A stretch of 42,950 nucleotides of DNA, from contig PBPH01000045.1 of assembly GCA_002725475.1 (NCBI GenBank), positions 1-42,950 on the forward strand. Reading direction: 5' to 3'. Origin of the DNA: Methanobacteriota archaeon (GTDB lineage: Archaea; Thermoplasmatota; Poseidoniia; Poseidoniales; Thalassarchaeaceae). A model generated the notes under the pieces. That model saw only the letters and a program-made list of their open reading frames with translations, was not told the DNA's origin and ran no database searches. Below, piece by piece: positions 4,605-17,948 of this stretch; position 1 is the stretch's first letter; each line of letters begins with the position of its first letter. The translations under genes were made by a program, and so were the position numbers.

Positions 4605-5123
4605 TCACTCTTCTTCATCCACTACTTCCCAATTTTCAGGTGGCCAATCAGGTAAATCAGAGGCTGGCCAGGCCCCTTTTTTGGTGTTAATTCCTTGTTT
4701 TCTGAACGTTTTCTTTGAGCGCCCCCAAACAGGTAATAGAAATCCAATAGTGGATCGTTGGCCAAACGACCATTTCCATGGACATTTGGGAAGTCTCGCA
4801 GTCCATTGTGCAAACAGAACTCGCCACTCTTCTTCAAGATGGTTTGGTATCAACCATTCAATCACAGTCAATGCTCCTGCGGAGCCTTGAACATGGCTAT
4901 ATGCTTCCATTGCAACATCTTTTAGAGGTCCATTTTCAATTACAAGACCAATAGTTCGAGCTCCCTGAGCTAAAGGAACAATCACGGCCCATCTGTCAAC
5001 TAATCTACTACCTTGTATTCTACGACCTGACCAATTTGCCTCTACCACCAGTTCTCGCAGTGCTCGAACTGCATCAGTTGGTGAGATGCAAGCCTCAACT
5101 TTGAGATGACGGGGTACGCTCAC
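4605..5123 (-). CDS. Hypothetical protein with Trp-rich basic C-terminus
   Basis: 172-aa ORF filling the gap in a minus-strand run; no family recognised. Confidence 0.65.
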   Translation of the reverse strand: MSVPRHLKVEACISPTDAVRALRELVVEANWSGRRIQGSRLVDRWAVIVPLAQGARTIGLVIENGPLKDVAMEAYSHVQGSAGALTVIEWLIPNHLEEEWRVLFAQWTARLPKCPWKWSFGQRSTIGFLLPVWGRSKKTFRKQGINTKKGAWPASDLPDWPPENWEVVDEEE

Positions 5124-7280: not shown

Positions 7281-7586
7281 TCAACTGAATCTATCGTCAT
7301 ATTCTCCTGTTTTCACCTTCGTAATGAACTCTTTTGGCGTAATACCCTCAATATAGCATCGCATCGAGACACAAGTTCCCATGACTTCTAGCGATCTAGC
7401 TTTGACGTTTTTGCCAGTCAAATCAGCAGCTTTCTCATTTGAGATAGTAATGATTTGATCGAGTGTAATATTATGGACTGCTGGGTCTGAACCAGTATCA
7501 ATTTCGCCTTCCCAAGAACCGTTGAACTTAATGCCCTTTCCAATTACTGCTGTTCGAATTCTTCTAGCAGTCCAGTTGTCTGACAT
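7281..7586 (-). CDS. rpl11: 50S ribosomal protein uL11, C-terminal rRNA-binding domain only
   Basis: ITLDQIITIS, EVMGTCVSMRCYIEG, GEYDD match the uL11 CTD; canonical position between spt5 and rpl1; SD GAGGTGA. Confidence 0.88.
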   Translation of the reverse strand: MSDNWTARRIRTAVIGKGIKFNGSWEGEIDTGSDPAVHNITLDQIITISNEKAADLTGKNVKARSLEVMGTCVSMRCYIEGITPKEFITKVKTGEYDDRFS

Positions 7587-7627
7587 TGATTCACCTCATT
7601 GTTTGGGTTCCGGCCGACCTACTTCCT

Positions 7628-7643
7628 CTATTTAACCGCCGCG
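7628..7643 (-). promoter_or_regulatory. Putative promoter of the rpl11 operon (CGCGGCGGTTAAATAG)
   Basis: TATA-like TTAAATAG about 45 nt upstream of the rpl11 ATG, with a GC-rich upstream element. Confidence 0.5.
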
Positions 7644-7660
7644 AAAAACACAATCTTCGC

Positions 7661-8575
7661 TTAGGCAACACGCTCCGTAACTCGAACATTATCTGCTCGC
7701 ATTGTAATTGGGATGGGGACAGCCGCTTCGAACAGTTCAACTGTAACTTCTTCCTTTCCTTCAGAAACGGCAGTCACACGTGCTCTATTGCCCTTGAAAT
7801 GACCAACTCTAATTTCTACAATACTTCCTACTTCAATTCCTGCTGTAGCAGATTTTGGCTCGAGATAATTCGAGACAACATGAAATGGTGCTTCCCCCGG
7901 TAAAACCTTGGAACAACCTCGCATGGGCGTAGTAACTCCGCCTGCTCTGCCAATTAATTTCTCAACGTAGTGTTTTGCGCTAGCCTCAACAAAAATGTAA
8001 CCTCGCATCATTTGAGGATGAATCACTGAGAAAACCTCGCCTTGAACATCTTGCAAAGATCCAGTCCCAGATAATCTGGCACGAATTTCGTTTGCTATTT
8101 TTTGCTCTTGACCAATAGTGGTCTTGAGCATGAATAGGAATGCAGAAACGTCACCGTACATTTCCCCTAATTGGGGCACTGCCGCTCTCTCTTGCATGAC
8201 ACTTACATCGTCTGCCCCCTCAACTTCATCCGGGCTGAGTACATTGACAAATCCAGGATCTACCCAAACAGTATCATTATACAGTGATCGAGGAATAACC
8301 TCATTTGTTGTAGTAGTAATTAGAATTGGAGTTACATCATTTAATCTATTACCAAATTCGATACCACGTGGCTCACCCATTCTCACAAATGTAAGTGAAT
8401 CAGTGGGTATTGCGGTTGCTTCTTCAACTCTAGTTAGTACATGATCGACATCATTAGCGTCACCTACTCCATAGACTCCATCCCACATTCCATTGAAATC
8501 ACTCACTTCATCAGAGCGTTTCATCAGAAGCACCTTGTCAGCGTGGCGAATGAATACGATAAACCCATCAGACAT
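7661..8575 (-). CDS. spt5: Transcription elongation factor Spt5 (NGN+KOW) with N-terminal Nudix-like domain
   Basis: KTTIGQEQ, MRGYIFVEA, GSIVEIRVGHFKGNRARV, VTVELFEAAVPIPIT; extra ~145 aa N-terminal; SD GGAGGT before ATG 8575. Confidence 0.92.
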   Translation of the reverse strand: MSDGFIVFIRHADKVLLMKRSDEVSDFNGMWDGVYGVGDANDVDHVLTRVEEATAIPTDSLTFVRMGEPRGIEFGNRLNDVTPILITTTTNEVIPRSLYNDTVWVDPGFVNVLSPDEVEGADDVSVMQERAAVPQLGEMYGDVSAFLFMLKTTIGQEQKIANEIRARLSGTGSLQDVQGEVFSVIHPQMMRGYIFVEASAKHYVEKLIGRAGGVTTPMRGCSKVLPGEAPFHVVSNYLEPKSATAGIEVGSIVEIRVGHFKGNRARVTAVSEGKEEVTVELFEAAVPIPITMRADNVRVTERVA

Positions 8576-8600
8576 TTTCAGACCTCCAATAATTAGTATT

Positions 8601-8864
8601 TCAACCGACAAGCCATCCGAAGAATTTTGGTAGTTCAGTATCCATTAACCAGAGCATTACAAATCCGATGAAGCCTAGCACGAACATACCAATTCCACAT
8701 ACCCATACAGTTTGCTTGAATTCAGCCTTAGATGGTTTGCGAGCCATTCTCAAGATACGTGCCCAAGAACCCCTTCCAAAACTTCGAACCCAAGACTCAA
8801 ATTGGTCTTGTCTAGCTTGAACCCTTTCCTCAAAGGACTTGCTGGTTGACTCTGGACTGGACAT
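8601..8864 (-). CDS. secE: Protein translocase subunit SecE/Sec61-gamma
   Basis: RILRMARKPSKAEF followed by one TM; ftsZ-secE-spt5 order. Confidence 0.93.
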   Translation of the reverse strand: MSSPESTSKSFEERVQARQDQFESWVRSFGRGSWARILRMARKPSKAEFKQTVWVCGIGMFVLGFIGFVMLWLMDTELPKFFGWLVG

Positions 8865-10215: not shown

Positions 10216-13200
10216 GTGTTGATGAAGAATCGGGCGGTGTCATTGGTCTTGCTTTTACTCACCTCGACTTTTCTCTCGTTAATTCCATTGGATAGAGAAT
10301 TGAGCGAGTTAGAATTAATTGCGGAAACTGGTGCTAGTCAATGGAATTCTAATGATGAGCCAACCATTCAGAATGGTTGGTTTCCAGAGGTTTGGCAACC
10401 AGCAACAAAAGGCGCAGTATGGGATATAGATTTTAGTCCAGATGGAACAAAACTTGCTGCAGTTGAAATTTCCGACAACCGTCTATTTGTTTGGAATGTA
10501 AGTGACGGGCGAGTTCTACTTTGGATTCATCATTCCGACGCATTAGTTAATGTTGCTTGGCTATCCAATGATTGGGTATTGGTGGGCGATAATGGCATCA
10601 ATTGGTATTCGTATCAAGTTGTTGATGATGGCTCTTCAAAACCGAAAAACTCCACACAGATGAATTCGGGTCAATGGACGGATTCTTTGACAGGAACTTA
10701 TGATGGATGGCTCTGGGGCCTAGATGCTTCAATAATTAATTCAAAAGTTGTTTTCTGTGGTGATATTAATCATTTGAATATGGGCGGTGAAGTAGTAATA
10801 GCGGATATTTCGCACTTCATCGATGGCTCGCCAGCGAATGCACAAAATTTCTTTCCACAATATTGGGTTCCAGACTGCGCACTTTCTACGAATGGAGCTA
10901 CGGTAGCCGCTCTTGGCAGAAACATGACATCAACAGGTGGTAATGTTTCATTTCGAGATGTAGTATATGGCATTGGGTCGAATAACGGTAGTCTTCTTTG
11001 GGAGCGGCATGTAGCGGGCCCTAATTCTACAGCCTGGGCAATTACTTGGGAGCCAGGAGGTGGTAGTTACACAATTGCCTATAATCACCCATCTCCATCC
11101 CAACCCGGTCATTGGGAAGGTGTAGCATCTTCATATGCTGAAAGCGACGGAACTTTGTTTTGGTATTCCCCAATCCCTCAGAATGTTAGTAGTCTTGCGT
11201 GGCTTCCAGATGGTTCTTATCTTACAGTTGGATTATATGATCCTGGTAAAGTTTCCATTATCAATACCGCAGGCCAAGTTCAAACCGACTTTGGTTGGCA
11301 CTCTGTAATTTCAAACAATACTGGACAACCAGAAGATGTCAAAGCAGTAGCGACCGCGACTATATCTTCCTCGACAACCGCCAATCAATTGATTGCTTCA
11401 GCTGGTAAAGATGGTGGAGTGGAAATTTGGAAAGCTGACACCTCTAATTTTGAAATTCTTCCCTACCGTAGATTCGGTCCTAAATTAGTCAGAGAAATTT
11501 CGATATCCCCTAATCAAGACATGATTGCGATTGCTGAGTCATCAGGAACTTTAACAATTCGTTCAGGGACAAATGGTTCAATTCTGTCCCAATGTTTTCA
11601 CCCTGAATTTGGACAAGTAGTTTATTCAATTCCATTTGCAAAATCCGTAGGTTGGCAGCAATTCAACGAAGCATATGTAGGGTTTAGTGATGGCGTGATG
11701 ATGGCATGCAATTTAATGGGTAAATTTGCTTGGTTATTTGATTTAAGACAACATCAGACAGTGGGGGCATTTGGTAGAATTGACATTCATCCTCAATCGC
11801 CATATGCGGCTATATCTTGGTCATCTAACACAACTAACACAAATTTAGACGGACATATTGCAATCATTGACCCCTATTCTGGACAATTTCTCAAGGAATG
11901 GCAGTATGCTGAATCTCATTGGACAGTTTTGTTCAATGCTAACGGAAATTTGCTAGCATCAGCTAGCCAATCAGGGGCAGTTAGGTTTTGGAATACTAGT
12001 GATACTCAACCTCAAAATTGGTTTGACGAAGGATCACCGTATTCTCACAATGGATATGTTGGTGTTACAAGTTGGCTACCCGGTGTTGATATGTTGATAT
12101 CAGCAGGATGGGATAAAGAGATGATAATCTGGGATGTTATGTCTCAAACACAGATGCAATCAACAACTCTGATGCCCGAGCCATTTTCAGTCACCCCACT
12201 AATTGTTGAAGGGGTTATGGCTGTTGGAACTGGCGATGCCTCAACATCTTTACAAGGACAAATCGAATTTTATGATTTACAAAATAATACCCTTTCCAGT
12301 ACTTACGCTATTAATCACATTCCGCGTGGATTAGGTGAATTGTTTTCAGGCGACGCTCTTGCTCTAATGAACCACACGGGAACACTACTAATTTTGAAGA
12401 AAGATGCAGATGGTGATGGCTGGTTGGACTTAGAAGATGATTTCCCGAATGATCCAACACAACACTATGATGGCGATGGCGATGGTTGGGGTGATAATCA
12501 GAATTATCCCAATGGAGATGGTTGTCCTAATACGGTTGGAACGAGTACTCAGGATAGAAACGGATGTCCAGATAGTGATGGTGATGGATACAGTGATCCA
12601 GACTCATCGTGGCTTGCAAGTCCAAATGGTCTAGCAGATGCTTTTCCTAGCAACCCATCACAATGGTGGGACAGTGATGGTGATGGATATGGTGATCAGT
12701 ATTCATTTGAAATCGGAAATGATGGTTTTAGAATAGGAGAAGCCGGTGATGCCTTTCCAAATAATCCCTCTCAATTCCGTGATTTAGATGGTGATGGATG
12801 TGGTGATAACTATACCTATGGTAATGACAATGGTATGAGGATTAACGAAGCGGGCGATGCATTCATCTCAGATGCAACACAGTGCAATGATTTTGATGGT
12901 GATGGATACGGAGATAATTACACATTTGTCATTGGACAAGATGGTCTAAGAATAGAAAATGGAGATGCCTTTCCTACCGACCTTCTTGCATGGTCTGATA
13001 TTGATGGTGATGGTTGCCCAACAAATTCTGCAACAGGATTAACAATTGATTACTACCCAACAGATTCTCAATTTTGCAATGAAGATCTGCCCTTTTCCTT
13101 ACCTGAAAATTTGAATGCAATCATCACGAATTCTGAAAATCTTTGGCATGTACATATGACATGGTTATCTGCAGCAGAAAATACAGATTTGATTAGATTA

Positions 13201-13887
13201 GAAGTAGCTCTCACCGACAACGTATCATTACCAGGGGATTCAGATTATTTTTCAATTCAGGTTTGGACTACGATTACTCAAGTTGATGAAAATATTTCAG
13301 TTGATCCCGTAACAGGAATGAATAAAATTCACGTCCGTCTTACCGCAATTCCTGATGATGGGAGTTCATTGAGCAAAAACTGGTCAGCTATTTGGGTTGA
13401 TGTAAATATTAATGATCCAATTGAGAATACTTCCGAGAACAATAACAATCCAAACATTGACAGTGATGGGGATGGATTGATTGATTCAACAGACAATTGT
13501 CCAAATGACGTAGGGCCAACAGATAATCAGGGCTGTCCAATTATTTACGATGACACGACAAGTAACCAAAACGGTAGTGATGGGAATAAAGATACTGAGG
13601 AAACATCTCCACTTTGGTATATTGCAATTTTAATTGGCATCTGTGCTCTATTAGTTCTAATATTAATGGCAGTTAGGTACAATAGGAGAACTGATGAAAT
13701 TGTAGAAGGAGCATATTCGATGTCTCAATCAAACTCGTTTGCCCCACCATCCGTTCCTCCTTCACCAACGATGCATCCTCCTTGCAAGGCGTGTGGTGGT
13801 TTTGTTCAAGAGGTGATGCACCAGGGCAATCTATGGACATGGTGTCCATCATGCAGTGAATGGCAGGATTTTCTTGGAAAAAAATAA
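10216..13887 (+). CDS. Large surface protein: signal peptide, WD40-like beta-propellers, thrombospondin type-3 Ca-binding repeats, TM, cytoplasmic Pro-rich linker and Zn-ribbon
   Basis: VWDIDFSPDGTKLA, LISAGWDKEMIIWD; many DxDGDGxGD...DAFP repeats; TM WYIAILIGICALLVLILMAV; CKAC...CPSC. Confidence 0.85.
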   Translation: MLMKNRAVSLVLLLLTSTFLSLIPLDRELSELELIAETGASQWNSNDEPTIQNGWFPEVWQPATKGAVWDIDFSPDGTKLAAVEISDNRLFVWNVSDGRVLLWIHHSDALVNVAWLSNDWVLVGDNGINWYSYQVVDDGSSKPKNSTQMNSGQWTDSLTGTYDGWLWGLDASIINSKVVFCGDINHLNMGGEVVIADISHFIDGSPANAQNFFPQYWVPDCALSTNGATVAALGRNMTSTGGNVSFRDVVYGIGSNNGSLLWERHVAGPNSTAWAITWEPGGGSYTIAYNHPSPSQPGHWEGVASSYAESDGTLFWYSPIPQNVSSLAWLPDGSYLTVGLYDPGKVSIINTAGQVQTDFGWHSVISNNTGQPEDVKAVATATISSSTTANQLIASAGKDGGVEIWKADTSNFEILPYRRFGPKLVREISISPNQDMIAIAESSGTLTIRSGTNGSILSQCFHPEFGQVVYSIPFAKSVGWQQFNEAYVGFSDGVMMACNLMGKFAWLFDLRQHQTVGAFGRIDIHPQSPYAAISWSSNTTNTNLDGHIAIIDPYSGQFLKEWQYAESHWTVLFNANGNLLASASQSGAVRFWNTSDTQPQNWFDEGSPYSHNGYVGVTSWLPGVDMLISAGWDKEMIIWDVMSQTQMQSTTLMPEPFSVTPLIVEGVMAVGTGDASTSLQGQIEFYDLQNNTLSSTYAINHIPRGLGELFSGDALALMNHTGTLLILKKDADGDGWLDLEDDFPNDPTQHYDGDGDGWGDNQNYPNGDGCPNTVGTSTQDRNGCPDSDGDGYSDPDSSWLASPNGLADAFPSNPSQWWDSDGDGYGDQYSFEIGNDGFRIGEAGDAFPNNPSQFRDLDGDGCGDNYTYGNDNGMRINEAGDAFISDATQCNDFDGDGYGDNYTFVIGQDGLRIENGDAFPTDLLAWSDIDGDGCPTNSATGLTIDYYPTDSQFCNEDLPFSLPENLNAIITNSENLWHVHMTWLSAAENTDLIRLEVALTDNVSLPGDSDYFSIQVWTTITQVDENISVDPVTGMNKIHVRLTAIPDDGSSLSKNWSAIWVDVNINDPIENTSENNNNPNIDSDGDGLIDSTDNCPNDVGPTDNQGCPIIYDDTTSNQNGSDGNKDTEETSPLWYIAILIGICALLVLILMAVRYNRRTDEIVEGAYSMSQSNSFAPPSVPPSPTMHPPCKACGGFVQEVMHQGNLWTWCPSCSEWQDFLGKK

Positions 13888-13896
13888 CTACAATAA

Positions 13897-14712
13897 TTAG
13901 CGACTTGATTGAGAATATTCATGATAGTCTACAGTAGGTTGTAGTGAATCAATAGCAGATTGAAGACGTGCATTGGCAGCTTGTTCTCCACTCTCTATCG
14001 CGGCTTTTTGGGAATTGAGAGAGGCAAGCCTTCTTGCTAGACTTTCGGCGACATTTTTATTTAATCCAGAAGACGGTTGAACCCATCTTTCAAGAGAAGA
14101 AGCAATTCTCTGATAAGAAGTTGTAAGCCCATTATCTGAAATTAGAACAAACTCATTTTGTTCTCGCGAAAGTGGCCCAATAGATTCAAGAGTTTTGTCA
14201 AGTGATTTGGCTACCTTTGTGGCTTTTTTCAAGTTCCCTTTACATTTTTCATATGCCTCTATTGACAACAGATGTGCCTCAATATGACCCGCATTTGCGG
14301 CCCTCGAGAAACATTTGATAGATTTACGTAATTTATTGAATTGAAGAAATACTCTCCCCATTTGTATTTGATCTTGTAATTTCAAAATAGTTTGCTCTTG
14401 TGTAATTGGTAATCCACTTTTTCCTCTAAATCCATCTAACGACCTAACCTCCTTTTTGAGCTTCTTTGTGGCATTTAGGCACTTTTTCCATTTTTGTCGA
14501 ATTTCAAGAATATTGGCATAGTCTCTCAATGCAAGAACCAATAATTCTTGATTTTCCAGAGTTCTATTTTTACTCGACCATTTTGAAAGTAATAAATTTG
14601 TAAGTTCTTCAGCCATTACTTCAGCAATTTCAAGCCTACCATCTGCTACATAATGGCGTAATTGGTTTAGGACTTTGACAGGATCATCCATGCCAAACAT
14701 ACTATCCCTCAA
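13897..14712 (-). CDS. Hypothetical basic alpha-helical (TPR-like) protein
   Basis: 271-aa ORF; QMGRVFLQFNKLRKSIKCFSRA resembles a TPR helix pair. Confidence 0.6.
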   Translation of the reverse strand: MRDSMFGMDDPVKVLNQLRHYVADGRLEIAEVMAEELTNLLLSKWSSKNRTLENQELLVLALRDYANILEIRQKWKKCLNATKKLKKEVRSLDGFRGKSGLPITQEQTILKLQDQIQMGRVFLQFNKLRKSIKCFSRAANAGHIEAHLLSIEAYEKCKGNLKKATKVAKSLDKTLESIGPLSREQNEFVLISDNGLTTSYQRIASSLERWVQPSSGLNKNVAESLARRLASLNSQKAAIESGEQAANARLQSAIDSLQPTVDYHEYSQSSR

Positions 14713-14774: not shown

Positions 14775-17700
14775 TCATTTCTTACGCTTGACAACTTTAC
14801 GCTTAACTGATTTGCCACTCTTTGAAGGTCTTCTTCTCTTCTTTTCCTTCTTTGGTTCATCATCATCATCATCATCATCCCAATCGTCATCATCATCATC
14901 ATCATCATCGAAATCATCATCTTCGACAACTTTCTTCTCTTTCTTTGATTTTCGACGCTTCTTCTTTTGATTATCATCAGAACTGAAAGGGTCATCATCG
15001 CTGTCTAATTGTTTGGTTGCTTTCGGTGCTGCTTCAAGCTCAGCCAGCCCAGCATCGGCAGCGGCGGCACTATCTCCGCCCCCTCCTCCCATGAATTCGA
15101 GCATCCAATCATCTTCCTCGTCGTACTCATCATCATCATCCTTTTTCTTCTTTTTAGAGGGGTCCTGAGCTGCTAGAACACCTAACAATATGGCAAACAG
15201 AAGTAATAGAACATTGAAGGCTGCTACTGCAATGATAATGATATATGGTGGGCTAGTCAAATCTGGAGCAGCTTCTGGTTCAACAGTCTCTTCATCAAAT
15301 GGTTTGGTTCCACTTTCACAGAAAGTCATGCCACTGAGATTTTCATAACAGTGATCAACATAGAATGTGCCAACAAAATTTCTTTCATTTCCAGCAGTAT
15401 CTACGGCATGAATTTCGATTCTGTGATTACCTGGTTCAACGAACGTAGCGGAAGGTTCTTTCATATCGAAAATCAATGTGTTGCTTTCTACATCCATCGG
15501 TGTGACATCATTCACTAATTCCCATTCAGAAGGAATTTCATAGAATTCACGAACATCCACGAGTCTGAATTTAACTTCGACTAGGGCAACATCATCAGTC
15601 ACAACCCCATGAATTCTAACATCATCTCCATACAGGTATTTGCTACTTGATGATGGAGCAAAAAGTTCGATAGTTGGTGCAATAGAGTCTATTGACCAAT
15701 TGCTCCAACTCAATGTTTGAGAATTACCAACATCATCGATTAAGGTTGCTTCCACACACAACTCTGTAGTCTCCATTCCACTAGGAATCGGGAAATCCCA
15801 AATAAAGTGAGTATCAGAACTTAGGAAAGGAGTGGCTCTAGTTATTTCATTTTCAGGAGTAAATGTGCTTCCTTGAATATTGTCATAGTCACAAGTATGT
15901 ACATGAAGTAGTGGGAATTCAGCCAGAGGTTCATTACTGAAAATGCTCAAGCGATAGTCTCCACCTTTTAGAGCTCCATTCGCAACCCCATCTTCACCTT
16001 CAAGACCTATCAAAATTTCAGCACTTGCCCCCGTGGTATCTTCGTGTACTAACCATGTGTTTGAATTGTTTAGTAGAGAATCACGAGAATTGCCCCAATC
16101 ATCAGCAATAATCAATGCATACCAAGTGTATCTGTCGAGGTTTGAAGGGAGATAAATCTCCTGGACTACAGTAGTTTCCGCTGGGTGTGGTTCATAGTTA
16201 TGAATCAAAATTTCCCAACCAGCATCGTCAGAAATATTTCCAGTTTCATTGTCGGCGAATGGAACACCAAGATGTCTCCAAAGAGTATATGTTTCACCTT
16301 CCTCTGCTAGTGAATTGATCCAAGAGAGAATTACCTTATTTTGGCCACCATGTAATATTGGTAGAGCAAGTTGAACAGGTGCAGGTGCAAGTGTGTCTTC
16401 ATTGACTGCCAGTAAGATACAGTTTTGTTGGAATCTAGTGTCTTCAAACGTTGCACCAAGGTGGTTGTATCTTGTGACGGATGTAACGCAGTAGTAAGAA
16501 AGGCGATCTTTGTCTGGAGGAACTGGAACGTTGGCATACTGAACTCCGTCTGGTACCGTAGCAACTAGCGTAGCTTCAAGACTCAAGTTTGAAGACTCTG
16601 AAAGTCTAGTCCAAGCGTGCCAAACATGGTAGGATTCACCTTCAGCACCAACTTGATCAGTCCAAGAAACTCTAGTAACACCTCCACCGAGGTATTCTGC
16701 TTGAACGTTAGTTGGTTCAGCAATCCAGGGATCGAAAGCATTCTCCAATATTGGCCCATCTAATACAGAATTGTCGATCATACTATTGTGATTTCCTCGA
16801 GAATCAGCGATAGTAACAGCGTAGTAAGCATATCCAAGTGTTCCCCTCTCTACTTGGTAATCATATGTTTGAATTCCAGAAGGGACAGAAGCGATGTGTT
16901 CAACATATACATTTGAAGTATTGTTGAATTCAGTCCCGGATCTCCAAATATGATAAATGGCATTTGTCTCAAGAGTATTGTCGGTCCAGGTAATAGTTGT
17001 GTTTCCTGTACCACCTATTGGTTCAGCATTGAAAGTAGCATGAACACCGCCCAATAATAATCCAGGAGCCACATTATCTTCCCTTACAGGCCAGTTTGAA
17101 TCCATTGTATTGACTCCTCCTATGAAGCGAGTGTCTTCGTATCCAAGATAGAGATAAGTTACAGAATAGAAAGCATCTTCATCAGTGTTTGGAGGGACAT
17201 CGTAAGTAAAAGTTGAAACTCCTGCAGAAGCAGTTCCAACTAGAGTCTTAGGCAAGAAAGCCCAATTTTCTCTCGAAGCAGGCATTAGGTGTCGGTAAAT
17301 ATTGGATACATACGCGTTATCTCCAGACTCAAGAATACTGCCAGGTGATAGTTGATTAAGATTAATCCAATCAATTTTTGTTTGGCTAAGATCGGGATAA
17401 TATGTAGCATTGACAGAGAACGGGGCAGTAATGTCATGAGTAAATTCAAAAATTGGCATACCAATTTGCGAAACTCCTAGTTCCATATATGCAATCATGG
17501 TCCATGTACCATTCACTATGTCATGGTAATTAGTAGCAATTCCGTACCAAAATGTACCATTTTGAGATGGAGGCAGATTATATTCAAAGGTGTGGAATTG
17601 TCCAGGGCAACCTGATAATGGACCCACACAGGCAGAAACATTTCCAATGTATGGAACTTCACCATTGGCGATTGTCGTAGCGTTCATCTGCGCATCATGC

Positions 17701-17948
17701 CGGTAAATCAGATATCTAGAAGATTGCAACATCTCTGAAATATAGATTAAACCAGTTTGAACATTTTCCCACGTAATTGTAGTCGATTCAGTTTCTGACA
17801 TGAACATGGCGTTAACATTCTGTGCTTGCATATCTTCATCACTCACTCCACCTCCAGCAGCACTAACCGGCTGAACTGTTGATGACAGCAATGAGAATAG
17901 CAAAATTGCAGTAATCAAGTGTGATTTTACCTGTCGATTACAGCGCAC
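14775..17948 (-). CDS. Large surface protein with about five FN3-like repeats, Ig-like domains, TM and a charge-block cytoplasmic tail
   Basis: Signal peptide; repeats of the form NV.A....T.I.W...Y.I[YW]R; TM near aa 905-930; poly-D and poly-K/R blocks. Confidence 0.8.
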   Translation of the reverse strand: MRCNRQVKSHLITAILLFSLLSSTVQPVSAAGGGVSDEDMQAQNVNAMFMSETESTTITWENVQTGLIYISEMLQSSRYLIYRHDAQMNATTIANGEVPYIGNVSACVGPLSGCPGQFHTFEYNLPPSQNGTFWYGIATNYHDIVNGTWTMIAYMELGVSQIGMPIFEFTHDITAPFSVNATYYPDLSQTKIDWINLNQLSPGSILESGDNAYVSNIYRHLMPASRENWAFLPKTLVGTASAGVSTFTYDVPPNTDEDAFYSVTYLYLGYEDTRFIGGVNTMDSNWPVREDNVAPGLLLGGVHATFNAEPIGGTGNTTITWTDNTLETNAIYHIWRSGTEFNNTSNVYVEHIASVPSGIQTYDYQVERGTLGYAYYAVTIADSRGNHNSMIDNSVLDGPILENAFDPWIAEPTNVQAEYLGGGVTRVSWTDQVGAEGESYHVWHAWTRLSESSNLSLEATLVATVPDGVQYANVPVPPDKDRLSYYCVTSVTRYNHLGATFEDTRFQQNCILLAVNEDTLAPAPVQLALPILHGGQNKVILSWINSLAEEGETYTLWRHLGVPFADNETGNISDDAGWEILIHNYEPHPAETTVVQEIYLPSNLDRYTWYALIIADDWGNSRDSLLNNSNTWLVHEDTTGASAEILIGLEGEDGVANGALKGGDYRLSIFSNEPLAEFPLLHVHTCDYDNIQGSTFTPENEITRATPFLSSDTHFIWDFPIPSGMETTELCVEATLIDDVGNSQTLSWSNWSIDSIAPTIELFAPSSSSKYLYGDDVRIHGVVTDDVALVEVKFRLVDVREFYEIPSEWELVNDVTPMDVESNTLIFDMKEPSATFVEPGNHRIEIHAVDTAGNERNFVGTFYVDHCYENLSGMTFCESGTKPFDEETVEPEAAPDLTSPPYIIIIAVAAFNVLLLLFAILLGVLAAQDPSKKKKKDDDDEYDEEDDWMLEFMGGGGGDSAAAADAGLAELEAAPKATKQLDSDDDPFSSDDNQKKKRRKSKKEKKVVEDDDFDDDDDDDDDWDDDDDDDEPKKEKKRRRPSKSGKSVKRKVVKRKK
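14857..14921. repeat. (TCA)n trinucleotide tracts encoding poly-Asp
   Basis: Two interrupted TCA runs within the tail of the 1057-aa protein. Confidence 0.9.

Follow-up and report, generated by a model that had tools for sequence, protein, structure and literature searches.

In the archaeal order Poseidoniales (Marine Group II), the transcription elongation factor Spt5 carries an N-terminal domain with a complete Nudix fold, and the alignments show that the catalytic Nudix box of this domain has been dismantled. We think that the Nudix-like domain probably binds something at RNA polymerase (RNAP) and does not cut nucleotides. We describe the fusion protein as it is encoded in a 42,950-nucleotide stretch of DNA from one genome of the order (contig PBPH01000045.1), which we will call the window. 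The features of the gene and of its neighbors are given in Table 1.

Archaeal Spt5 is regarded as a minimal protein that contains just the NGN and KOW domains, and Poseidoniales, which are uncultured, are among the ocean's most abundant archaeal orders. The whole order appears to have swapped the minimal Spt5 for a version with a rigidly joined and strongly conserved pseudo-enzyme domain beside the pocket that binds RNAP. Were this domain to bind a metabolite or a nucleic acid, it would give archaea a new way of controlling transcription globally. We found no description of this fusion in the literature outside of subscription journals on archaeal Spt5, Nudix proteins, and Poseidoniales or Marine Group II, or among the papers listed on domain architectures of Nudix and NusG.

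Table 1. Features of the Nudix-like-Spt5 fusion gene and its neighbors, with positions in the window.
Feature	Position	Strand	Basis
Nudix-like-Spt5 fusion, whole gene, 304 aa	7661..8575	minus	ATG 8573-8575, stop 7661-7663
Shine-Dalgarno-like GGAGGT, 6 nt 5' of the ATG at 8575	8582..8587	minus	sequence inspection
Nudix-like core, aa 1-110	8246..8575	minus	AF2 pLDDT 74-94; Foldseek, VIA-align, hhalign
Nudix box remnant, aa 36-56 (G36...T48 R49 V50 E51 E52 A53 T54 A55 I56)	8408..8470	minus	alignments
Variable acidic insertion, aa 111-131	8183..8245	minus	identity among relatives; pLDDT 59-69
Last Nudix helix (aa 136-143) and junction motif M-Y-G-D-V	8138..8182	minus	AF2, alignment, VIA-align ranges to 145-149
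NGN domain of Spt5, with linker, aa 147-232, boundary approximate	7880..8137	minus	PF03439 147-210; PDB Spt5 alignments from aa 147
Spt5 KOW region, aa 233-304, boundary approximate	7664..7879	minus	PF00467 249-280; TIGR00405 through aa 302
SecE-like small membrane protein, 87 aa, upstream neighbor	8601..8864	minus	visual likeness to sister-lineage ORFs
Ribosomal protein L11 reduced to its C-terminal domain, 101 aa, downstream neighbor	7281..7586	minus	

The Spt5 part and the gene neighborhood

On the minus strand, the reading frame opens at position 8611, and from the ATG onwards it encodes 304 amino acids. The N-terminal residues that were quoted in the original prediction are found in this ORF. 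We compared 50 sequences of the fusion protein (from this genome and from 49 others), all of which aligned over residues 1-302 of the 304 and without a stop.

Residues 147-304 are a canonical archaeal NGN-KOW Spt5, as had been proposed. PF03439 (NGN) matches residues 147-210 (E = 1.9e-10; 41 bits, with a cut-off of 22.4), TIGR00405 matches residues 148-302 (E = 6.5e-33; 113.8 bits, with a cut-off of 69.95), and solved archaeal Spt5 chains match the C-terminal part with E values from 1e-26 to 4e-22. In the 304-aa protein, PF00467 (KOW) matches residues 249-280 with 17.4 bits, which is under its cut-off of 22.3; among 34 relatives, 29 have matches to PF00467 at E <= 10, the best at 6.1e-6.

The fusion gene lies within an ftsZ-secE-spt5-rpl11-rpl1-rplP0 cluster, and the same genome encodes Spt4 at positions 1028-1204 of contig C61 (PF06093; 42.7 bits, with a cut-off of 25). 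Both the secE-spt5-rpl11 context and the Spt4 partner that are expected of Spt5 are present. The SecE-like neighbor had no match in Pfam at 1e-5. Since Spt4 itself is present, we ruled out the idea that the N-terminal domain is a replacement for it. The fusion is the only copy of Spt5 that we detected in this genome (the assembly is 70% complete), so every elongation complex should carry the Nudix-like domain.

The other neighbor, ribosomal protein L11, is without its N-terminal domain throughout Poseidoniales. The co-distributed loss of this domain suggests a broader remodelling of the order's expression machinery.

The N-terminal domain has a Nudix fold

Residues 1-146 form a complete Nudix-fold domain that is homologous to Nudix proteins. 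The core elements in the AF2 model are strands at residues 4-11, 14-20, and 34-37, a helix at 43-54, and strands at 61-66, 70-74, 77-88, and 99-105. VIA-align superimposed the model on Nudix structures with Z scores of 13.0-14.4 and an rmsd of 2.2-3.4 A over 115-139 aligned residues. The 50 rows listed by VIA-align were all from the Nudix superfamily, non-catalytic members included. The aligned range of the model starts at residue 1-3 and mostly ends at residue 145-152 (up to 169). These ranges extend the Nudix region, which was originally put at about 107 residues, to around residue 145. Also, a Foldseek search found Nudix structures at E values of 1.5e-6 to 5.6e-5. The top structural neighbors include Ap4A hydrolases, NudI, RppH, and NudC.

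Profile comparisons agree with the structural ones. With hhalign, an alignment of 30 N-terminal domains matched seven standalone Nudix relatives from sister lineages with a probability of 98.4% (E = 4.3e-15). A search of 1.84 billion proteins with the profile of the N-terminal domain gave 442 matches at E <= 0.001. We scanned 10 of these: two were members of the fusion family, and the other eight, which had E values from 1e-14 to 1e-7 in the profile search, were all PF00293 (NUDIX). PF00293 had no match in the 304-aa protein even at E = 10; of 34 relatives, it matched just two (best E = 1.5e-4). A sequence search of solved structures gave nothing significant for the N-terminal domain (NudC was at E = 0.6 with the whole-protein profile and 0.03 with the N-domain profile). 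Overall, the domain has both the ~130-aa alpha/beta/alpha fold and the sequence homology that are expected of the Nudix superfamily, and the Nudix fold that was originally proposed for it holds up.

The search with the N-terminal profile also gave some short matches (47-207 aa). These may be partial sequences that come from short contigs.

Erosion of the Nudix box

The catalytic Nudix box, GX5EX7REUXEEXGU, is incomplete in all 50 sequences, and three of its four acidic positions are lost in every one of them. The position of the GX5E glutamate falls inside a deletion: the loop of the box is 2 aa shorter in the 304-aa protein than in the standalone relatives, and 2-4 aa shorter across the fusion family. 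Position 49, which corresponds to the glutamate of RE, is Arg in 47 sequences and Cys in the other three, and position 48 is never Arg (it is Lys in 2/50). The second glutamate of EE (position 53) is replaced by A, C, T, S, or V and is never acidic; at the first (position 52), 47/50 have E or D. The box was originally described as eroded except for EE. The erosion is borne out across the 50 sequences, but the retained pair is not: E52 alone aligns with a glutamate of the box, and E51 aligns with a variable X position. Judging from these alignments, the metal-binding Nudix box is dismantled in the fused form. Because the closest standalone relatives keep a full or nearly full box, this loss is specific to the fused form. 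Non-catalytic Nudix-homology domains (of the kind in NrtR, DBC1, and the C-terminus of MutY) have, by the definition in PMC5389931, a Nudix fold and a degenerate box and are part of a multidomain protein, as is the case here.

Other residues of the domain are fixed across the order, namely R10, R20, W31, D32, G33, T54, P83, Y99, W104, D106, Y140, and G141. The conserved arginines are R10 and R20 (50/50 each), R49 (see above), and R70 (45/50), and the glycines of the box region are retained. The remaining acidic residues are D32 and D106 (50/50 each), position 52, D39 (43/50), and D42 (38/50). Both D39 and D42 are unconserved in one of the three families.

As judged from its variation, the N-terminal domain is under clear purifying selection. 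The mean pairwise identity is 0.55 for the Nudix-like core, as compared to 0.67 for NGN and 0.69 for KOW, and among population variants in the N-domain part of the gene, 10 of the 11 variant sites are third codon positions.

Distribution and origin of the fusion

The spread of the fusion across Poseidoniales, a question that the original prediction had raised, is nearly complete: it was detected in 197 of the order's 201 genomes, including all 61 of high quality. In a sample of 151 genomes from the phylum, all 25 Poseidoniales had matches at 176-208 bits. For 40 other genomes in this sample, the matches were at 28-66 bits and lay in ORFs of 133-347 aa, except for one in a 671-aa frame with an internal stop. 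In five of five genomes from the sister lineages, Spt5 lacks the Nudix domain; these spt5 genes have open frames of 184-265 aa and a secE-spt5-rpl11 context. Among the genomes searched, the fusion is confined to Poseidoniales, and nearly all of the order's genomes carry it.

We propose that the common ancestor of Poseidoniales had a small Nudix gene joined onto spt5 at its 5' end. The fusion event would have taken place inside the secE-spt5-rpl11 cluster.

We considered two sources for the domain and rejected both. The first was a recent duplication of a Nudix gene within this genome; none of its four PF00293 loci has a match to the HMM of the N-terminal domain (E <= 10). The second was a standalone relative beside spt5 in the sister lineages. 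The relatives there are found on different contigs and in different surroundings.

The junction and the probable place of the domain on RNA polymerase

After the Nudix-like core, there is an acidic stretch with a net charge of -5 over residues 110-133. It varies from 7 to 25 aa in relatives and has a mean pairwise identity of 0.24 (0.06 between families). The acidic stretch was originally taken for a linker between the two domains, but it sits before the last helix of the fold according to the AF2 model, VIA-align, and the alignments. It is a variable loop within the Nudix fold, ahead of the last helix.

The last Nudix helix runs directly into strand 1 of NGN, without a linker, and the residues at the junction hardly vary (Y140 and G141 in 50/50, V143 in 49/50). 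Residue 147 aligns to residue 2 of Spt5 from M. jannaschii, and Ala-4 of that protein is described in PMC2896526 as lining the pocket that grips the coiled-coil of the RNAP clamp. Given the offset in this alignment, the Nudix domain would end about 6 residues from the position that aligns to Ala-4. In the account given in PMC3094117, the NGN domain closes the cleft of RNAP, and the upstream DNA and the non-template strand pass along Spt4/5. The original prediction implied a site near the RNA exit, and attachment to NGN without a linker, so close to the Ala-4 position, weakens that idea. The AF2 model itself gives no interdomain geometry because residues 144-244, which include NGN, are poorly modelled (pLDDT < 50; pTM 0.50).

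Potential functions of the Nudix-like domain

We lean towards the view, by a modest degree, that the domain is a putative non-catalytic binding module, that it is held at the RNAP clamp's tip, and that it tunes the engagement of Spt5 with RNAP. Canonical nucleotide hydrolysis would have been given up, and the domain would serve for binding instead. The most likely ligand would bear phosphate: either a nucleotide-type metabolite or a strand of DNA or RNA. Arginines, in place of metal ions, would grip the ligand, and its binding would tune how Spt5 engages RNAP in each round of elongation. Nucleotide binding or sensing by the N-terminal domain, which was part of the original prediction, is possible.

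A bolder proposal, which we consider unlikely, is that the domain is a putative gate on the cell's sole Spt5: a nucleotide-type metabolite or the non-template DNA strand, bound by the arginines that took the place of the metal site, would switch the engagement with RNAP on or off. Such a gate may have co-evolved with the loss of the N-terminal domain of L11. If this is true, then there would be genome-wide control of elongation that responds to the state of a metabolite or of the DNA. The bacterial counterparts in this role would be autoinhibited RfaH and control by ppGpp, but the gate would be made from a Nudix fold.

As a tentative alternative to a binding module for phosphate-bearing ligands, the domain could be a pure protein-protein adaptor that binds no ligand. 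It would enlarge the interface between Spt5 and RNAP at the clamp or would dock another factor. For instance, it might compete with TFE, or it might contact the ribosome or a termination factor. An invariant junction of zero length, right beside the pocket that binds the clamp, is what an adaptor might have. Also, PMC5389931 describes non-catalytic Nudix domains that can bind other protein domains, and PMC3223566 describes the clamp as contested by TFE and Spt4/5. However, the conservation of R10, R20, R49, and R70, along with the glycines of the box region, is closer to a preserved phosphate site than to a flat interface.

It is quite improbable that the domain is a non-canonical hydrolase at RNAP, whether for NTP sanitation or for the processing of caps or 5' ends. 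Such an enzyme would use D32, D39, D42, E52, and D106, which are the acidic residues that are conserved near the box; enzymes such as the Ap4A hydrolases and RppH are among the top structural neighbors, and NAD-capped RNAs are described in archaea in PMC10663502. Against this, the GX5E position is deleted, the glutamate of RE is usually Arg, and the second glutamate of EE is never acidic. The conservation of two of the putative catalytic residues (D39 and D42) does not extend to every family, and the loss of the box is restricted to the fused form, while the standalone relatives keep it. The proposed position at the tip of the clamp is also distant from the RNA exit. In particular, the processing of RNA 5' ends (decapping or pyrophosphatase activity), which the original prediction had put forward, is unlikely, given that most of the acidic positions of the box are gone and that Arg usually occupies one of them.

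The start codon and the reading frame

We also considered whether the Nudix-like domain is a dispensable appendage, so that an internal start at Met139 would also yield an Spt5 of canonical length, with the long form as a minor or regulatory product. This is very improbable. Position 139 is Met in 46 of the 50 sequences and Leu in the other four, and in the window, the purine-rich sequence GGGGAA is immediately 5' of codon 139. However, just 0-2 nt separate this purine run from the ATG. When the junction sequences were inspected, the residues that it encodes varied from family to family, so the run is not conserved as a site for ribosome binding. Position 139 is also Met in some of the standalone relatives, where it is a plain residue of the helix. 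An internal start is also at odds with the purifying selection on the N-terminal domain and with the strong Shine-Dalgarno sequence ahead of the ATG at 8575.

At the level of the DNA evidence, we reject the idea that a separate Nudix gene and spt5 were falsely joined by assembly or annotation, because the frame is unbroken in all 50 sequences from different genomes, the N-terminal domain is present in nearly every genome of the order, nearly all of the matches listed have open frames of ~290-390 aa (some of the few shorter frames begin less than ~150 nt from the end of a contig), and contigs from other sequencing runs (X3, 7951-8700; X5, 7600-8321; X6, 8081-8176) span the domain junction with 0 differences and 0 indels. 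The original prediction of a single frame for the Nudix part and Spt5 is thus confirmed, and a stop between two genes, which it had raised as the opposite outcome, is not seen in the 50 sequences or in the contigs from other runs.

We looked for evidence of transcription in one RNA run. The sole contig was of 265 nt (positions 7792-8056) and had 15 differences; it comes from a relative and does not prove that this gene is transcribed.

Comparison with known systems

Solved archaeal Spt5 proteins (P. furiosus 3P8B/3QQC, M. jannaschii 4ZN1, and T. kodakarensis 9BCT) share the NGN-KOW domains and the gene cluster with the fusion. Their chains are 147-163 aa and begin at NGN, whereas the fusion has ~146 additional residues at its N-terminus. 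In the sister lineages, the N-terminus of Spt5 is merely a short acidic tail, in contrast to the Nudix fold of the fusion.

Eukaryotic Spt5 recruits the capping enzyme, and the original prediction drew on this analogy. Contrary to that analogy, the fusion protein is without pointers to 5'-end chemistry. Like the fusion, eukaryotic Spt5 has a region that was added N-terminal to NGN. PMC3094117 describes this region as acidic. Unlike the N-terminal part of the fusion, it has no Nudix fold.

Small Nudix hydrolases that are encoded on their own in archaea (PF00293; for example, those of 136 aa and 133 aa at loci L036 and L072) are homologous to the fused domain across the whole fold, and the A2 HMM matches standalone relatives with E values of 1e-15 to 1e-11. 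The standalone and fused forms have the same motif in the C-terminal helix and the same structural neighbors (Ap4A hydrolase, NudI, and a MutT-related protein). In the standalone proteins, the box is complete or almost so (GX5E, R/K/T-E-U-x-EE-x-GU), and their genes are not adjacent to spt5. In contrast, the box is lost from the fused form, which has gained D32, R49, Y99, D106, and Y140-G141. Other Nudix relatives are fused to IF-2B.

Two other Nudix folds that are not hydrolases are also structural matches to the fused domain. The C-terminal domain of MutY/MUTYH (Z = 13.1) has a Nudix fold without being a hydrolase and is part of an enzyme that is bound to DNA, a DNA glycosylase. There is thus precedent for the action of a Nudix fold on nucleic acid.

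The other is the Nudix domain of NrtR from Shewanella, solved with ADP-ribose (3GZ8), which is one of the top structural matches and aligns to the model with Z = 14.1 and an rmsd of 2.4 A over 123 residues. In NrtR, the partner of the Nudix domain is a winged helix. NrtR is a bacterial DNA-binding repressor, while the partner in the fusion is an RNAP-bound elongation factor. As in the fusion, the Nudix fold of NrtR serves a transcription protein instead of being a free hydrolase, and PMC5389931 describes NrtR as an ADP-ribose-dependent regulator.

A fused Nudix-Spt5 gene in a conserved cluster

The fused gene encodes a 304-amino-acid protein, and a GGAGGT lies 6 nt 5' of its ATG (see table). 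All of its neighbors share its strand: upstream come ftsZ and a small ORF that is secE-like, and downstream come rpl11, rpl1, rplP0, and the gene for an acidic stalk protein. (The small ORF has no match in Pfam; the secE-like label reflects its likeness, by eye, to ORFs from the sister lineages.) These surroundings are the classical archaeal secE-spt5-rpl11 cluster. Elsewhere in the window, the ORF that adjoins ftsZ has multiple WD40 or beta-propeller matches, and three ORFs did not match any Pfam family (E <= 1e-5).

Amino acids 147-304 are an ordinary Spt5. This region matches PF03439 (NGN; E = 1.9e-10) and TIGR00405 (113.8 bits versus a cutoff of 69.95), and alignments to solved archaeal Spt5 chains begin at aa 147 (E = 1e-26 to 4e-22), which confirms the normal NGN-KOW Spt5 of the original prediction. 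We found one Spt5 in this genome, which is 70% complete, and Spt4 was found as well.

Features of the fused gene, its protein, and its surroundings (nt, window positions; aa, positions in the fused protein; tallies are across 50 fused sequences)
Feature	Position	Strand	Observation
Fused gene	nt 7661-8575	minus	frame open from 8611; ATG at 8575; stop at 7661-7663
rpl11	nt 7281-7586	minus	directly after spt5; 101 aa
ORF adjoining ftsZ	nt 10216-13887	plus	1223 aa
ORF without Pfam family	nt 14775-17948	minus	1057 aa
ORF without Pfam family	nt 13897-14712	minus	271 aa
ORF without Pfam family	nt 4605-5123	minus	172 aa
Junction	nt 8135-8149	minus	crossed by X3, X5, and X6
Contig X3	nt 7951-8700		same study as a possible source sample
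Contig X5	nt 7600-8321		other study
Contig X6	nt 8081-8176		other study
NGN match (PF03439)	aa 147-210
TIGR00405 match	aa 148-302
Acidic stretch	aa 111-131		7 to 25 aa long among 50 relatives
Last helix of Nudix-like fold	aa 136-143
Box Gly (GX5E)	G36		Gly in 49/50
Box Glu (GX5E)			within a 2-aa deletion; 3-4 aa in most third-family members
Box Arg (REUXEE)	aa 48		Arg in 0/50, Lys in 2
Glu of "RE"	aa 49		Arg in 47, Cys in 3
First Glu of "EE"	aa 52		Glu/Asp in 47/50
Second Glu of "EE"	aa 53		Ala/Cys/Thr/Ser/Val in 50/50

The N-terminal domain is a Nudix homolog

Amino acids 1-146 (the N-domain) have no match in sequence searches of Pfam, NCBIfam, or the PDB. An AlphaFold2 model of the fused protein, with 34 relatives as input, had pLDDT of 74-94 in aa 1-110 and of 77 in aa 131-140; over aa 144-244, which include the NGN domain, pLDDT was below 50, so the model is uninformative about interdomain packing. 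Foldseek matched the model to Nudix hydrolases (E = 1.5e-6 to 5.6e-5). With VIA-align, all 50 of the matches listed were Nudix-superfamily chains (Z = 13.0-14.4, rmsd 2.2-3.4 Å, 115-139 residues aligned). These include RenU, NudI, a MutT-related archaeal protein, Ap4A/Ap6A hydrolases, and RppH, as well as the non-catalytic Nudix domain of NrtR (Z = 14.1) and C-terminal domains of MutY/MUTYH (Z = 13.1). The aligned part of the model starts at aa 1-3 and ends at aa 145-152 in most rows (up to 169), and small Nudix chains are covered nearly from end to end.

A profile of 30 N-domains aligned to seven standalone Nudix genes from sister lineages with 98.4% probability (hhalign, E = 4.3e-15), and it had 442 matches (E <= 0.001) among 1.84 billion representative proteins. 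Ten of these matches were scanned: two are members of the fused family and eight are PF00293 proteins, four of which are fusions of Nudix with an IF-2B-family domain. Two clusters of matches, from Nanoarchaeota and Halobacteriaceae MAGs, carry the source name "NUDIX domain-containing protein". In the ESM Atlas, 23 of 30 feature hits were to NUDIX clusters, which we treat as a lead only. As originally predicted, the N-domain has a Nudix fold, by comparison of its model with Nudix structures, and it is a Nudix homolog by sequence profiles.

The N-domain's closest relatives outside Spt5 include proteins with an N-terminal NUDIX domain and an IF-2B-family domain (PF01008), namely P0115, P0134, P0137, and P0141 (413-533 aa). 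One such cluster is named from Halobacteriaceae MAGs. These relatives may hint at the N-domain's ancestral substrate class.

The original prediction had a domain of ~107 residues followed by an acidic linker, and these boundaries need to be revised. The fold requires its C-terminal helix, which lies inside the VIA-align structural alignments, and the acidic stretch (net charge -5 over aa 110-133) sits between the last strand and this helix. Because the stretch varies in both length and sequence (mean pairwise identity of 0.24, and 0.06 between the two large families), it is an insertion loop within this fold. The helix is followed by the motif M-Y-G-D-V, which leads straight into strand 1 of NGN, with a linker of zero residues. 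This junction is conserved, with Y140 and G141 in 50/50 sequences and V143 in 49/50.

The Nudix box is lost

We took the register of the box from hhalign and tallied each position across 50 sequences: the protein from this genome, the 29 best loci of an order-wide search, and 20 loci picked to span all three families. Because box elements are absent across this tally, the fused proteins lack the defining feature of Nudix hydrolases. The box is indeed eroded, as first proposed, but its EE is not kept: only the first Glu remains acidic. In contrast, standalone Nudix relatives retain both GX5E and (R/K/T)-E-U-x-E-E-x-G-U. Other residues of the fused proteins are fixed in all 50 sequences (R10, L16, R20, W31, D32, G33, T54, P83, Y99, W104, D106, Y140, and G141), and R70 is conserved in 45.

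Distribution and origin of the fusion

Our searches detected the N-domain in 197 of the 201 Poseidoniales genomes, including 61/61 high-quality genomes. By family, and leaving out this genome, it was found in 98/99, 2/2, and 96/99. Among the matches listed, nearly all of the N-domains are in open frames of about 290-390 aa, and some of the few shorter frames begin within ~150 nt of a contig end; 51 further matches from the order are outside this set. The closest named homolog (83% identity) is from a MAG of Candidatus Thalassarchaeaceae, a family of Poseidoniales (Poseidoniia, Thermoplasmatota). Source records name the relatives only as "transcription elongation factor Spt5" or "NusG".

Some fused relatives have an additional N-terminal SAP domain (PF02037): 8 of 81 homolog matches, and 4 of 34 relatives (best E = 3.9e-13). 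In the SAP-bearing proteins (P0005, P0021-P0024, and P0026-P0028), an acidic spacer lies between SAP and the Nudix-like domain. In other members of the fused family, SAP is absent and the N-terminal extension is long and acidic, and at three related loci (L016, L017, and L019) the open frames reach 370-389 aa. The window's own protein has neither SAP nor a long acidic extension.

Elsewhere in the class, we found only weak matches to the N-domain (E = 1e-8 to 1e-4, 26-34% identity), in 13 of 45 genomes and in open frames of 124-219 aa; one genus had no match in 32 genomes. The secE-spt5-rpl11 arrangement is also seen in 5/5 sister-lineage genomes, and there the only N-terminal addition to Spt5 is a short acidic tail. 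When 151 genomes from across the phylum were sampled, the 25 belonging to the order (including this one) all scored 176-208 bits across the whole N-domain profile. Another 40 genomes had a match, with scores of 28-66 bits; the majority of these matches span only about profile positions 1-117, and the ORFs that hold them are 133-347 aa long, except for a 671-aa frame that contains an internal stop. This genome's four ordinary Nudix genes do not match the N-domain HMM. The simplest history we infer is that, in the order's ancestor, a small Nudix gene of the type found across the phylum became joined to spt5 at its 5' end, and that catalysis was lost afterwards.

A shortened ribosomal protein L11

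The product of the adjacent rpl11 matches only part of the C-terminal domain of L11 (PF00298 positions 27-65 of 69, 27.3 bits). It lacks the N-terminal domain (PF03946), unlike a sister-lineage L11 of 156 aa, which has both domains. PF03946 was not found in this genome (best 12.9 bits versus a cutoff of 32.9) or in any of three near-complete genomes from the order (two are single contigs). The control genomes had it in 14/14 cases, as did 2/2 sister-lineage genomes, where it adjoins spt5. Across L007-L062 (loci of the order), the L11 ORF after spt5 has 90-104 aa from its first Met in the 44 loci where it was found, versus 156-160 aa in all five sister-lineage loci. The distribution of this loss equals that of the Spt5 fusion. 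To our knowledge, the N-terminal domain of L11 is otherwise universal, and we found nothing about its loss in the literature that we searched.

Position on RNA polymerase and possible function

In the alignment to M. jannaschii Spt5, residue 147 of the fused protein pairs with residue 2, and by offset, M149 corresponds to Ala-4, which lines the pocket that binds the RNA polymerase clamp. The A4R substitution in this Spt5 abolishes binding (PMC2896526). NGN closes the cleft, and Spt4/5 lies alongside the path of the upstream DNA and of the non-template strand (PMC3094117). Given that the N-domain joins NGN without a linker, ~6 residues before the aligned pocket residue, it should be located at the tip of the clamp, close to the bubble's upstream edge. 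This argues against the originally implied location near the RNA exit.

Nudix domains that are not catalytic are known from multidomain proteins, where their ligands are small molecules or partner domains (PMC5389931). Together with the loss of the metal site, including the Glu-to-Arg swap, and with several fixed arginines, this leads us to lean towards a non-hydrolytic binding module. It would bind a nucleotide-type metabolite or a strand of nucleic acid, and it would tune the engagement of Spt5 with RNA polymerase. We are highly confident in the structural and evolutionary parts of this reading and in the loss of the box.

Since partner domains are among the known ligands of such domains, the N-domain could be a pure protein-protein adaptor, which we consider possible but rather unlikely. 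A non-canonical enzyme is more doubtful still: hydrolases among the top structural matches speak for it, and the loss of the box speaks against it. It is very improbable that the N-domain is dispensable, with translation starting internally at Met139: sequences of the Nudix-like core have a mean pairwise identity of 0.55, and those of the helix and junction 0.58 (NGN, 0.67; KOW, 0.69), and variants are at third codon positions in 34 of 37 places in the fused ORF and 10 of 11 in the N-domain part. Finally, the fusion is almost certainly not an artefact, as the frame is unbroken over aa 1-302 of 304 in 50/50 sequences and contigs from other public sequencing runs (X3, X5, and X6) cross the junction with 0 differences and no indels, which bears out the predicted single frame.

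We found no description of a Nudix-Spt5 fusion in the literature that we searched, which did not cover subscription journals. The putative binding module and its Spt5 both belong to known families. In the sister lineages (L065-L069), a strongly acidic tail of about 15-35 aa precedes NGN in the canonical Spt5; on a small scale, this tail parallels the N-terminal region of eukaryotic Spt5, which is also acidic.
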